Sequence record: OR352946.1
Direction: 5' to 3' (one strand)
Source of the DNA: Escherichia phage AV116
Length of the DNA: 64,000 nt
Shown here: in pieces, positions 24,625 through 28,564 of the stretch
How positions within the stretch are numbered: the first letter of the stretch is position 1
Layout of the letters: every line of letters starts with the position of its first letter
Made by a program: the position numbers and the translations under genes
The notes under the pieces: model-generated
What the model was told of the DNA's origin: nothing
The model's database searches: none
What the model saw: the letters and a program-made list of their open reading frames with translations, nothing else

Positions 24625-24837
24625 TTAATTTTGGCCAGTATTTATTTTTCGCCTTTGGACGGCCTTAACATCTGTGAGGTATTTTTCCAGCTTGCGCTTG
24701 CGTGTATAATCAGCTTTAGAACCAGTTTGACGGATATCCTCGTTTAAATGAGAAATAGAATGTCCTAATTCTCTTCGGATTTCATCCAATTGGGTTACAG
24801 TAAGATTACGAAGTTGTCTTTCGTTTAATTGCTGCAT
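24625..24837 (-). CDS. hypothetical protein (rI.1-position)
   Basis: 70 aa ORF. Confidence 0.4.
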
Positions 24838-24864
24838 ATATACCTCTTGGTTAGATATTAGTAT

Positions 24865-25446
24865 TTATAACAACCCTGTCAAATCGTTCCAATGCTTCCG
24901 GCATAATGACACATATCTATCGGTATCACCAATTTCAATTTGACTGCCATCTGTAATTGGAAGTCCGTCTTCCGTGACTCTAGCTACCATTGTGGCCTTT
25001 TTACCACAATGACAAACACCTTTAAGTTCAACAAGTTTATCGGCAATAGCCATTAATGCTTGAGAACCTTCAAATAGATTACCTTTAAAATCTGTTCGTA
25101 GTCCATATGCCATTACCGGCACATTGTACACGTCAACAATACGACTAAGTTGATACACCTTTTCAGTAGTTAAGAACTGAGCTTCGTCAACAAATACACA
25201 ATGAATATCCTTTTGTGCTGCAGCCCATTTATAAAATTCAAAGATATCCATGTCTTTTGTAATTATATTGGCATCCTGACGAATACCAATACGAGAGACT
25301 ATTTCACCTTTTGAATCACGAGTATCAATAGCCGGTTTAAGAACTAATACACCCATGCCACGTTCTTTATAGTTATGTGCGGCAGTAAGTAATGAAGCAG
25401 ACTTACCAGCGTTCATAGCGGCATAGGTAAAAATTAAACTAGCCAT
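24865..25446 (-). CDS. tk: thymidine kinase
   Basis: 193 aa; P-loop AAMNAGKSASLL; C-terminal zinc ribbon CHCG...LCRKH. Confidence 0.95.
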   Translation of the reverse strand: MASLIFTYAAMNAGKSASLLTAAHNYKERGMGVLVLKPAIDTRDSKGEIVSRIGIRQDANIITKDMDIFEFYKWAAAQKDIHCVFVDEAQFLTTEKVYQLSRIVDVYNVPVMAYGLRTDFKGNLFEGSQALMAIADKLVELKGVCHCGKKATMVARVTEDGLPITDGSQIEIGDTDRYVSLCRKHWNDLTGLL

Positions 25447-25455
25447 AAGAGTCCC

Positions 25456-25638
25456 TTATAGTGAATTCACGTAGTCAATGAGTTCTTGTTCTTTCCTGTC
25501 AAATGATTCCAACAATGCTTGATATTCTTCGTCCGTCAAAGGAGCATATTCATCATACGCATTGGTGGCTGCTTGCTCATCCAATAGGTCATGGATAAGT
25601 TCAAACAGTTTAGTTTTCTCTTCTTTAGTCAATTTCAT
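25456..25638 (-). CDS. hypothetical acidic protein
   Basis: 60 aa ORF. Confidence 0.4.
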   Translation of the reverse strand: MKLTKEEKTKLFELIHDLLDEQAATNAYDEYAPLTDEEYQALLESFDRKEQELIDYVNSL

Positions 25639-26099
25639 TTAGGTTCCCAATCAACAATCACAATTTCTAGTTTAGTGGAATACGTATCTAAAATCTCTTC
25701 GATGACATCCCAGTTTCCACCACCAATACCTGCACCAATTCTTGGCATATAAATTACAGGCTTTGTTATCTTATTCTTTCCGAATTCATTTAATTCTATT
25801 ATACAATTCATTAAAGCAGAGTACTCAAAATTAGGTCCCGGCTCAAACTGTGTATAAAGATTAAAGCAATAAGCTTTATGGGTCTTAAAATATTTTTCAT
25901 AAACCGAATAAGTCCCGAGTTTAGACTTGTCTCCGAATTCGGTTTGAAGTTTATCGGCTTCCAGAATTTTTGGATAAGCCTTTGCTAATTGTCCTGCCAC
26001 ACCAGCGCCCATTGTATGAAAACAATTACACCCGTGAGCAATATTATTACCTTTAGAAAACAGGGCGACAATATCGCCCTTGATATAGTTTTTAATCAC
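25635..26099 (-). CDS. macro domain protein, TARG1/OARD1/DarG-like (putative ADP-ribosyl hydrolase)
   Basis: YIKGDIVALF...IAHGCNCFHTMGAGVAGQ and C-terminal YMPRIGAGIGGGNWDVIEEI align with remembered TARG1 motifs (YVKGDLF, LAHCIS..MGAGIA, MPRIGCGLD); probable GTG start at 26099 overlapping upstream stop (track start 26129 is TTG). Confidence 0.6.
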   Translation of the reverse strand: MIKNYIKGDIVALFSKGNNIAHGCNCFHTMGAGVAGQLAKAYPKILEADKLQTEFGDKSKLGTYSVYEKYFKTHKAYCFNLYTQFEPGPNFEYSALMNCIIELNEFGKNKITKPVIYMPRIGAGIGGGNWDVIEEILDTYSTKLEIVIVDWEPK

Positions 26100-26439
26100 T
26101 TGCTGCAAGTCCTCTAGTATAAGAGTCAACTAGACGGTCCACCATAGAATTGCATGCCGCCTTATCTTTAGGTTCCGCCACCGAGCATTCTAATATTTGC
26201 CATTTTTTATAGTATCTTTTAATTAAGGTAGACGCCTTGAACCTACTAGACGCCCCATCTTTTTCTCCGTCTTTATACGCATATAACAATTTTTGTGAAA
26301 AATCTACTTTACACTCTTGACTTTTACCACAATAATCAGACGCCGTTCTGTTTGTATACTCCGTTACATCAGTATATGTAGTATTAGCAAGAGCGTTAAA
26401 TGAAACCAAGCCAACTATTAAAGCCAACATTTTGGTCAT
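26092..26439 (-). CDS. secreted/periplasmic protein (positional equivalent of T4 vs)
   Basis: 115 aa; N-terminal signal peptide-like MTKMLALIVGLVSFNALA. Confidence 0.45.
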   Translation of the reverse strand: MTKMLALIVGLVSFNALANTTYTDVTEYTNRTASDYCGKSQECKVDFSQKLLYAYKDGEKDGASSRFKASTLIKRYYKKWQILECSVAEPKDKAACNSMVDRLVDSYTRGLAASD

Positions 26440-26978
26440 TCTTTTATTTCCAGTAGTTTATTTGATTTAAGGTAATTAGCCTTTTCTAGGACTTCAGAAG
26501 CATATTTACTTCCAGCACTTGTCTTCCATCCCGCATTATATGAGGATATGGCTTTCCTTATATCCCCGTTATGTATATTTAACCAATAAGAAAATTCGAT
26601 ATAAGCCCATCTGGCTGAATTAGACCGCTTAGATAGCATTTTCTTAATTTGGGCATCAGTCATATTATAACCAAGCTGGTTAATTCTTGCCCTCATTGTT
26701 GGTAGATAGTTTTGGAACATTCCATACGCATGGTGACCTTTCTTATCTTTAAGATTAATACCGGCAGATGATTCCTGCCATAGTATTGCGGCCATTATGT
26801 ATCCAAGTCCTTTCTTATGCATATTTTCATGCGTTTTAAATTTTCCGTCCTTAGAAAACTGTTCCCCAAACTGATAAGCATAATTCAAGTTATCGAGTTG
26901 GACATTACTAAAAGTATGCTCGGAGCTATGTGCTGATAACGAAAGAGCAAATAGACCAGCGAGTAGTGCTTTTCTCAT
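26436..26978 (-). CDS. secreted protein with lytic transglycosylase-like motif (vs.1-position)
   Basis: signal peptide MRKALLAGLFALSLSAHS; LWQESS motif reminiscent of SLT catalytic Glu-Ser. Confidence 0.45.
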   Translation of the reverse strand: MRKALLAGLFALSLSAHSSEHTFSNVQLDNLNYAYQFGEQFSKDGKFKTHENMHKKGLGYIMAAILWQESSAGINLKDKKGHHAYGMFQNYLPTMRARINQLGYNMTDAQIKKMLSKRSNSARWAYIEFSYWLNIHNGDIRKAISSYNAGWKTSAGSKYASEVLEKANYLKSNKLLEIKE

Positions 26979-26986
26979 GTTTACCT

Positions 26987-27445
26987 CTAGATTTTAATCA
27001 CTGCTTTAGAAGCTTTTCCTGGTAGTCGTTTACTGTTAATAATAGCCATTCTACATTGAAGAGTCTTCATTTTGAATGCCGGATTTTCGCGACAAACTGT
27101 AAGTCCTAACCAAAGATTTCCGTCAGTTATTTCTAAACGGCCTGGGCGATATTCGACACCTTCGACAAAATCTTCATCAACATCCGGACGTGCCGGCATT
27201 GATAAAAATTCTGCAACTTCTTTAACGTGATTTTTTACTTTATGAAATAATTCAAAAACGTAATTCTCATCTATTTCTCTCTGGATGGCACGATCTAAGA
27301 GATGTTGAGAATACTTGATATGAAAGCCTGGTAGTCCAAGAGACTTTGCAGCATCTTTTATACCGGCATTTATTTTGCGGAACTCCGTTTCAAAGATTCG
27401 ACGGAGTTTATTACGGCGGATAAAAACATCCGAATTGATAGTCAT
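26987..27445 (-). CDS. regB: site-specific RNA endonuclease RegB
   Basis: 152 aa; matches remembered T4 RegB (SQHLLDRAIQREID, EYRPGRLEITDGNLWLG). Confidence 0.75.
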   Translation of the reverse strand: MTINSDVFIRRNKLRRIFETEFRKINAGIKDAAKSLGLPGFHIKYSQHLLDRAIQREIDENYVFELFHKVKNHVKEVAEFLSMPARPDVDEDFVEGVEYRPGRLEITDGNLWLGLTVCRENPAFKMKTLQCRMAIINSKRLPGKASKAVIKI

Positions 27446-27473
27446 TTTGATTTCTCCTCTAGTTGACAGGTCT

Positions 27474-27502
27474 ATAGTAACACAACTAGAGGAGAAGTAA
27501 AC
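27474..27502 (-). promoter_or_regulatory. T4-type early promoter-like element upstream of regB
   Basis: minus strand GTTTAC-N17-TACTAT. Confidence 0.5.
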
Positions 27503-27506
27503 TACT

Positions 27507-27722
27507 TTATTGATAAAATGGAGTTAAAGCCCAGGATTCTTTAGATACTATATTGGCGAAATGCCTCATCTCTTCGATTTGGCGACGACGCTGGTCAGCA
27601 TAGTCTTCTTCGCCTTCTTCCTTACAGTCTTCAAGGTCTTCTTCAAGATACTTTAAGTATTCACTACAAATTTTGTTGACCTTTTCTTGGAAGTCCAATA
27701 ACCCAGTAATAGTAGAAGCCAT
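27507..27722 (-). CDS. hypothetical acidic protein (vs.3-position)
   Basis: 71 aa ORF. Confidence 0.45.
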   Translation of the reverse strand: MASTITGLLDFQEKVNKICSEYLKYLEEDLEDCKEEGEEDYADQRRRQIEEMRHFANIVSKESWALTPFYQ

Positions 27723-27988
27723 TAGTATTTTTCCTCAGGTCGAAATACCGCACGACATGCCCACATGCTGGCTTCTTTTAGATGTTGCTTAGCATACTTA
27801 AGAGCCTGCACTGCATCCATATCTTCTTTGGTTTGTTGCTCTGTTTCATTTTCTTTCAAGATATATGCTTCTTCAATCAGAGCATCAAACATCAATCCAA
27901 GACGGACTTCGGCATCTTTAATAGCGTTCACTTTACTGATTTTATCATCGGTATGCGGCTTGTAGCCTTTGATGTCTTCAATCGACAT
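27722..27988 (-). CDS. candidate anti-CBASS cyclic-oligonucleotide sponge Acb2 (vs.4-position)
   Basis: 89 aa from ATG at 27988 with AGGAAA SD; second ORF after regB, matching the T4 vs.4 slot and size class; sequence not verifiable from memory. Confidence 0.45.
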   Translation of the reverse strand: MSIEDIKGYKPHTDDKISKVNAIKDAEVRLGLMFDALIEEAYILKENETEQQTKEDMDAVQALKYAKQHLKEASMWACRAVFRPEEKY

Positions 27989-28202
27989 AAGGAATTTCCT
28001 CATCAGTGGCAAGGTCATATTCGACCAATTGGATAGGCTCATTAATACCATATCCACGTACAGTGATATCGGTTGACGGATAGTTTCCAGTAATATCACC
28101 CATTCTAAATGCTTCAATGAATGATTGCTCGCCTGAGCAACTAAACCAGGCGGCAAAACATTTTAAAACATCTTCAGACCCTTCTATAATCAATTTAGCC
28201 AT
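27978..28202 (-). CDS. hypothetical acidic protein (vs.5-position)
   Basis: 74 aa ORF. Confidence 0.4.
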   Translation of the reverse strand: MAKLIIEGSEDVLKCFAAWFSCSGEQSFIEAFRMGDITGNYPSTDITVRGYGINEPIQLVEYDLATDEEIPYVD

Positions 28203-28564
28203 TATAGACTCTCAGTAAAGGTACGAGCGATAACGTCGCGCTGCTGTTCCGGAGTCAGAGAGTTAAAGCGAACTGCATAACCGGATACACGGATGGTCAG
28301 CTGCGGATATTTTTCTGGATGCTTAACTGCATCTTCTAGAGTTTCACGACGCAGAACGTTAACGTTCAGATGTTGACCACCTTCAATTTTAACTTTAGGT
28401 TGATGTTCAATTTCAATTTCACGGGCATGCAAACCGTAGAAAATTTCCGGGTCTACAATAGTGTCTTCTTTAAAAGTCTTAGAGACAATAATCCGGGCTT
28501 GAGTACCATCTTCAAAATAAATAGTGCCTTTATGTGCACCTTCAAGAATTTGATATGCTTTCAT
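28202..28564 (-). CDS. autonomous glycyl radical cofactor GrcA/YfiD-like (T4 Y06I-like)
   Basis: C-terminal approx 60 aa ([60 protein letters not shown]) match E. coli GrcA as I remember it, including the RVSGY glycyl-radical motif. Confidence 0.85.

Follow-up and report, generated by a model that had tools for sequence, protein, structure and literature searches.

The 64,000-nucleotide (nt) stretch of Escherichia phage AV116 analyzed here (OR352946.1; hereafter the window) encodes, on its minus strand and next to vs, a stand-alone macrodomain protein, which raises the question of what such a phage does with a macrodomain of its own. The original prediction, made from the sequence alone, had placed the gene product in the TARG1/DarG subfamily and proposed that it reverses DarT-type ADP-ribosylation of DNA or edits marks laid down by the ADP-ribosyltransferases (ARTs) of the phage itself. 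Our analysis confirms the observation and supports the first of these interpretations, with the caveat that the active site is of a Gln type. Overall, the gene is an RB69-type allele of tk.4 (adfM), and we consider it probable that it codes for a 17-kDa ALC1-like ADP-ribosyl glycohydrolase that clears DarT2 marks by an SCO6735-type mechanism. The finding as such is already known, as the role of T4 Tk.4/AdfM has been published and the macrodomain annotation of RB69 Tk.4 is in GenBank.

The class of the protein was established by sequence, profile, and fold searches. The three hallmark blocks on which the original prediction relied are all present in the product (154 or 164 amino acids, depending on the start codon), with YIKGD at residues 5-9, IAHGCNC at 20-26 followed by MGAGVA at 30-35, and MPRIGAGIGGG at 118-128. 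The Pfam Macro profile (PF01661) matched with E=1.6e-6 and 28.5 bits against a gathering cut-off of 22, and the alignment pairs residues 22-136 of the protein with positions 2-117 of the 118 in the profile. Further, PHROG 335, which is labelled "phosphatase," matched at E=8e-67, and homologs of the protein were found in 2800 of 50,697 phage records; because of these three results, the macrodomain assignment lies far above chance. An AlphaFold (AF2) model, computed from a family alignment of 73 sequences that also served for the conservation counts given below, has a predicted local distance difference test (pLDDT) score of 95.9 and a predicted template modeling (pTM) score of 0.91 and displays the three-layer α/β/α macro fold. 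When the model was compared with the PDB using Foldseek, as the original prediction had proposed, TARG1, Poa1p, BT1257, DarG, and SCO6735 formed the top group, with TARG1/OARD1 (PDB 4j5r) as the best match (3e-10), and a profile search of PDB sequences returned members of the ALC1-like class alone. We also noted matches to Poa1p in the sequence search (E=1.2e-8) and of the PADLOC DarG model to the macro part of the protein (E=8.7e-9). The top sequence, profile, and fold matches are all ALC1-like (TARG1-DarG-Poa1p) rather than of the MacroD, viral, or PARG types, and the predicted class therefore holds: the protein belongs to the ALC1-like (TARG1/DarG/Poa1p/SCO6735) macrodomains. Its nearest relatives within that class are BT1257, SCO6735, and Poa1p, not TARG1 or DarG proper.

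The active site was read from alignments with the characterized members of the class. For these comparisons, the TARG1 sequence used is identical to 2lgr, that of Escherichia coli DarG was taken from a darT-darG operon found by a tblastn search of plasmids with TARG1, and that of SCO6735 was recovered from a PDB alignment by means of a chimeric anchor query. A profile-profile alignment (hhalign) of the family with the DarG macro profile gave a probability of 99.3% (E=3.9e-20), and MAFFT alignments agree with its register, in which TARG1 Lys84 stands in the column of Gln84 and TARG1 Asp125 in that of Gly126. The register around Gln84 was taken from this profile-profile alignment and from L-INS-i alignments instead of pairwise phmmer, which proved wrong near Gln84 against BT1257 and SCO6735 by a 5-residue indel. 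The Lys84/Asp125 dyad of the TARG1 type is thus replaced by Gln84 and Gly126, and the original prediction had named the absence of the catalytic Lys and Asp as what would refute it. That absence is formally what we find; however, the yardstick was too strict because, as reported in the SCO6735 paper, the Asp is missing from DarG as well, and SCO6735 has neither residue but nonetheless hydrolyzes DNA carrying ADP-ribosylated thymidine (dT-ADPr), acting through Gln85. In our alignments, the segment A-N-M-I-G-Q85 of SCO6735 is paired with F-N-L-Y-T-Q84 of the window protein, SCO6735 His24 and Asn27 correspond to His22 and Asn25 (the latter also being equivalent to DarG Asn22 and PhiKZ AdfM Asn23), and SCO6735 Gly126 and Gly128 correspond to G122 and G124, in a Gly-rich loop that reads GAGNGG in DarG. 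These positions hardly vary: Gln84 and Asn25 are invariant in all 73 family members, T4 Tk.4 included, His22 is present in 71 of the 73, and both Gly loops, with G122 and G124, are invariant over the same diverse set. In a 41-sequence DarG macro alignment, on the other side, FPTK is invariant. The published mutagenesis of SCO6735, a fast hydrolase and DarT antidote, shows what such residues can do: the Q85A and Q85E variants are inactive, N27S is nearly dead, and Asn27 locks Gln85. On the strength of these alignments, we class the T-even Tk.4 clade as Gln-type macrodomains (SCO6735/BT1257-like) and not as Lys/Asp-type macrodomains.

The original prediction had left open the existence of a T4 ortholog. 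T4 Tk.4 is a full-length syntenic ortholog that occupies the identical slot between vs and tk; at 59% identity, it shares with the window protein the motifs HGCNCFHTMG, NLYTQ, and PRIGxGIxGG, and its start, located at the aligned codon, is coupled to the vs stop, although five small open reading frames (ORFs) separate tk.4 and tk in T4 whereas the window has one. The closest named counterpart is RB69 Tk.4 (NP_861803.1), with 152 of 154 residues identical; the two proteins differ by two substitutions (A32G and K58E) and have in common their length, the GTG start, the gene order tk/tk.2/tk.4/vs/vs.1/regB, and a Mosigvirus background, the block that surrounds the gene in the window being 99% identical to Mosigvirus phages. 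T6 Tk.4 is 84% identical and shares slot and start position. Full-length homology, position between vs and tk, and a vs-coupled start are therefore found in the comparisons with T4, T6, and RB69 alike. RB69 Tk.4 is annotated in GenBank as "phosphatase; contains A1pp phosphatase motif," and no experimental characterization of it was found in the literature. For T4, tk.4 was the single gene depleted under DarTG2 in a HIDEN-SEQ screen, a clean knockout was sensitized, and the gene was renamed adfM (November 2025 preprint, bioRxiv 10.1101/2025.11.20.689424). The reversal of DarT-type DNA ADP-ribosylation put forward by the original prediction is thus what has been reported for the T4 ortholog, and by analogy the window allele would be expected to act on a like substrate by a like mechanism.

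In the mechanism that we propose, the macro gene would be translated in a coupled manner from a regB-vs.1-vs-tk.4-tk.2-tk transcript, and the glycine-rich loops M30-G33 and I121-G128 of its product would clamp the diphosphate of ADP-ribose. Asn25 would lock Gln84, which in turn would hydrogen-bond the ring oxygen of the distal ribose, and a water-initiated attack, as in SCO6735 and not via the Lys-Asp Schiff base of TARG1, would cleave the C1''-N3 bond that joins the ribose to thymine. The bond so cleaved would be the mark placed by host DarT2 at TNTC motifs of single-stranded phage DNA, and its removal would allow replication and packaging to proceed in DarTG2 hosts. The protein would then be a counter-defense factor that probably enables RB69-type phages to replicate in hosts with DarT2 ADP-ribosylation of viral DNA.

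Several points weigh against this mechanism. The profile alignment sets N80-L-Y-T-Q84 on DarG N76-F-P-T-K80, so that neither the catalytic Lys nor the DarG N-F-P-T-K motif is present. Lys34 and Lys89, which position the DNA in SCO6735, have no equivalent in the window protein: an Ala (MGAG) stands at position 32, and Gln84 is followed by a loop that is five residues shorter than in SCO6735 and devoid of Lys. Further, the support for the Tk.4 clade consists of T4 genetics, reported in a preprint; the anti-DarTG2 phenotype has been shown for the T4 allele only, from which the window allele differs at 41% of positions; and the AdfM that does have biochemical support, that of PhiKZ, is of the Lys type (FPTK) and 21% identical. 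Last, relatives with 34-37% identity and like motifs are encoded in NARP1 operons, and for one protein of this kind, phosphatase activity on ADP-ribose-1''-phosphate (ADPR-1P) has been proven. In agreement with the proposed function, on the other hand, earlier work found T2 and T4 to be resistant to DarTG2 irrespective of AdfA and AdfN; a review lists RB69 as a target of DarTG1 and T5 and SECphi18 as targets of DarTG2.

The NARP1-linked relatives bear on a different reading of the gene, in which its product would mainly be an ADPR-1P phosphatase (Adpp/Poa1p-like) that returns to ADP-ribose (ADPR) the ADPR-1P made by aRES, a RES-type NAD+ phosphorylase defense, instead of or besides removing ADP-ribose from DNA. 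The label of PHROG 335 and the A1pp motif noted for RB69 Tk.4 agree with such an activity. The relatives in Vibrio phage Ceto and Acinetobacter phage Liucustia have the motifs HxCNCF, NxY(T/G)Q, and IGxGLAGGDW, and their macro genes are located within or beside a pair of Prs-like and NAMPT-like genes (NARP1; L009:3135-6149 in Ceto and L010:901-4474 in Liucustia). According to a January 2026 preprint, the macro protein of the corresponding operon of Vibrio phage Gary (Adpp) dephosphorylates ADPR-1P and is required to overcome aRES, this step lets NARP1 rebuild NAD+ after aRES, and the closest characterized homolog named is Poa1p, to which the window protein is likewise homologous. No homolog of Adps or Namat was detected within the 64-kb window (tblastn, E>0.3), however, so the gene is not part of a NARP1 operon there; without such genes, the ADPR formed would have no route back to NAD+ through the published pathway. 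The T-even clade also departs from the NARP1-linked members in its shorter loop after Gln84 and in having Ala or Ser rather than Lys or Arg at position 32. Because the window lacks Adps and Namat, and because the direct T4 ortholog scored specifically against DarTG2, we rank the phosphatase second and regard it as unlikely to be the main activity. Hydrolysis of dT-ADPr and dephosphorylation of ADPR-1P are compatible and not mutually exclusive, and it is conceivable, if again improbable, that the Tk.4 clade is dual-function, with one His22/Asn25/Gln84 site that erases the dT-ADPr made by DarT2 and dephosphorylates ADPR-1P. If that were true, one small early protein would blunt two unrelated NAD+-based defenses, DarTG2 and aRES, and the diverged, reshuffled alleles (the T4 type, the RB69/T6 type, and the G31K/G127K form of T6) would reflect tuning to host toxins.

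Two further explanations would dispense with cleavage of the DarT2 mark. A Gln in place of Lys80/84 could mean that the protein neutralizes DarT2 without catalysis, by binding either the toxin itself or DNA that carries ADP-ribose; the catalytically dead Q85A variant of SCO6735 retains the ability to inhibit DarT through interaction, and binding has been proposed for other anti-DarT factors, AdfB among them. Yet the invariance of Gln84, Asn25, and the Gly loops in the 73 homologs fits a conserved active site, and SCO6735, which is of the Gln type too, hydrolyzes fast. The window protein, at 154 amino acids, also lacks the C-terminal DarT-binding domain of DarG: the NCBIfam DarG equivalog model (NF048014) gave 31.8 bits against a cut-off of 250 and was matched over positions 4-148 of its 338. 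We therefore hold purely non-catalytic neutralization to be quite improbable. Even less credence is given to removal or editing, on host proteins or RNA, of the marks of the phage ARTs Alt, ModA, and ModB, a role also raised by the original prediction and for which no support was found; a review notes that T-even phages in general have both ARTs and macrodomains, and nothing else speaks for it. No ART gene adjoins the macro gene in the window, and the phenotype of the T4 knockout is specific to DarTG2. In addition, the ARTs of T4 are arginine-specific and ALC1-like macrodomains are not known to cleave arginine-linked ADP-ribose, both of which count against this role.

Removal of DarT2 marks being the preferred function, we now turn to the gene itself, whose features are collected in Table 1. 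The stop-to-stop span of the ORF on the minus strand is 25635-26129 and would yield 164 amino acids from a TTG, whereas the GTG at 26099-26097 gives the 154-amino-acid product of 17.3 kDa with an isoelectric point (pI) of 6.8; the original prediction had named no strand. The original prediction had favored this GTG and its overlap with the upstream stop as a sign of translational coupling, and the comparison with related phages bears it out. The TAA stop of vs (26094-26092) lies within GTGATTAA, making the overlap between the two genes 8 nt; in T4 and T6, the ATG of tk.4 is located exactly at the codon aligned with the GTG (MIVKYIKGD versus MIKNYIKGD), with an in-frame TAG directly 5' of it; and the annotations of RB69 and vB_EcoM_WFL6982 use the identical GTG. 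The GTG start is supported because the homologs in T4, T6, RB69, and WFL6982 begin at the aligned codon, and the start of the macro gene is likely to be translationally coupled to the vs stop. The GAGGA element upstream may serve the macro gene as a putative Shine-Dalgarno element; the T4 counterpart has GAGGA 11 nt 5' of its ATG.

Table 1. Coordinates of the tk.4-type gene of the window, its neighbors, and its sequence elements
Feature	Position	Strand	Description and basis
tk.4/adfM-type gene	25635..26099	minus	154-amino-acid stand-alone macrodomain protein, GTG start, TGA stop; ORF and translation
GTG start overlapping vs stop	26092..26099	minus	GTGATTAA; read directly from the sequence
GAGGA Shine-Dalgarno-like element	26110..26114	minus	10 nt 5' of the GTG, within the vs coding sequence
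ATGA overlap	25635..25638	minus	TGA stop of the macro gene and ATG of the downstream 60-amino-acid DUF7438/tk.2-like gene
H22-G33 codons, first ADP-ribose-binding loop	26001..26036	minus	HGCNCFHTMGAG; conservation, DarG and SCO6735 alignments, published mutagenesis of equivalents
N80-L-Y-T-Q84 codons, invariant N-x-Y-T-Q motif	25848..25862	minus	hhalign, MAFFT, family conservation
M118-W130 codons, diphosphate-binding Gly-rich loop	25710..25748	minus	MPRIGAGIGGGNW; family conservation and alignments
8-bp hairpin	26062..26080	minus	AGGGCGAT-ATT-GTCGCCCT, ~-13 kcal/mol, codons 7-13 of the macro gene
tk.2-like gene (DUF7438), 60 amino acids	25456..25638	minus	Downstream neighbor; Pfam DUF7438 7.8e-16; RB69 equivalent annotated tk.2
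vs (valyl-tRNA synthetase modifier), 115 amino acids	26092..26439	minus	Upstream neighbor; PHROG 1256 at 5e-35; synteny with T4, T6, and RB69
tk	24865-25446	minus	Gene-order context
vs.1	26436-26978	minus	Gene-order context
regB	26987-27445	minus	Gene-order context

The minus-strand order is regB, vs.1, vs, the macro gene, the tk.2-like gene, and tk. The macro gene, placed between tk and vs by the original prediction, adjoins vs on one side and the tk.2-like gene, next to tk, on the other. A scan of positions 24700-28300 found 9 promoter-like elements compared with 12.2 in shuffled sequence and 3 terminator-like elements compared with 2.1; these counts are not above shuffled sequence, and we therefore do not claim a dedicated promoter for the macro gene. 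Of the neighbors, vs is the T4 gene most strongly depleted in minimal medium compared with LB (bioRxiv 10.1101/2025.11.20.689424).

The 5' end of the macro gene contains a hairpin (Table 1), directly 3' of which lies GTTTTCT. A 26-nt stretch, TATATCAAGGGCGATATTGTCGCCCT, occurs without change in the window, T4, and T6 despite only 57-59% identity between the proteins, and synonymous third positions within codons 1-15 are identical at 10 of 11 sites, as against about half elsewhere. The conserved stretch could be an RNA or DNA structure under selection, or it could mark a recombination junction where vs and tk.4 meet, and it is uncertain that the hairpin is part of the macro-gene system.

With respect to the neighboring genes, none in the regB-tk block (24865-27445) has diverged further from T4 than tk.4, at 59% identity compared with 68-83% for regB, vs.1, vs, and tk. 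The alleles of tk.4 appear to reshuffle independently of their flanks, like an exchanged cassette, because in T6 a window-like tk.4 (84%) stands between flanks that resemble those of T4. We also noted that the T6-type allele (L003:1501-1968; protein P0004, from a cluster of 122 members) carries G31K and G127K in the ADP-ribose-binding loops, at glycines that are otherwise near-invariant, which suggests altered binding or specificity. The spacing on the tk side varies as well: in the window and in RB69, the 60-amino-acid DUF7438 gene alone lies between the macro gene and tk, and in many close relatives (e.g. phage mobillu, L007:1136-1551) the macro and tk.2-like genes are ~415 bp further apart, the additional sequence holding two small ORFs (207 and 213 nt). 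In the lab-derived mutant T4 clone T4_7t1 (OL964745, L002:1573-1948), the tk.4 region is annotated as two macrodomain fragments of 186 and 177 nt and is 77.6% identical to the window protein; judged from its sequence, it looks replaced by that of another phage and disrupted.

Among the operons mentioned above, that of Ceto has its macro gene after the Adps-like and before the Namat-like gene, with an overlap of 4 nt, and fits the published NARP1-AP layout. A second arrangement was seen on the Klebsiella pneumoniae plasmid p4-KP21300 (L004:667-3113), where a 444-amino-acid DarT-family gene is followed, after a 4-nt overlap, by the gene of a 371-amino-acid macro protein that has a DarG-type NFPTK motif and a C-terminal half unlike that of E. 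coli DarG; this pair may be a DarTG variant.

Compared with known systems, the window protein is set apart from DarG2 (E. coli, Thermus aquaticus (Taq), and Mycobacterium tuberculosis (Mtb); PDB 5m31 and 5m3i) by Gln84, where DarG2 has Lys80. E. coli DarG is encoded in a darT-darG operon (L005), whereas no darT (DUF4433) gene was found next to the macro gene, the adjoining genes being vs and the tk.2-like gene. With TARG1/OARD1, the protein shares the YxKGD and MPRIGxG blocks at 23% identity, but not the dyad. Yeast Poa1p has the HxCNC motif in common with it and, as judged by eye, Ser rather than Gln at the Lys position. SCO6735 of Streptomyces coelicolor (PDB 5e3b) is the characterized protein that it resembles in being ALC1-like, in having Gln at the Lys position, and in lacking an equivalent of Asp125, although identity is ~24%, SCO6735 has Lys34, Lys89, and a longer loop after its Gln, and it is a cellular and not a phage protein. 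SCO6735 is also basic, with a pI of 9.9 compared with 6.8; net charge was nevertheless rejected as a mark of DNA-acting macrodomains, as the E. coli DarG macrodomain and PhiKZ AdfM have a pI of ~5. AdfB of ICP1 was considered as a relative and rejected, since its published description is not that of a macrodomain and DarT binding is its proposed mode of action. PhiKZ gp104 AdfM, which strips DarT2-placed ADP-ribose from DNA in vitro (Cell Rep 2026, PMC13309987), is likewise a stand-alone phage macrodomain directed against DarTG2 and has the conserved Asn (N23) and the MGAG loop, but it has the DarG-like MFPTK and is imported into the phage nucleus. As far as the alignments indicate, the name AdfM thus covers two mechanistically different lineages, the Lys type of PhiKZ and the Gln type of T-even Tk.4. 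What the present comparison adds to the published role of T4 AdfM is mechanism, in that T-even AdfM is of the Gln type and stands in one family with the ADPR-1P phosphatase Adpp.

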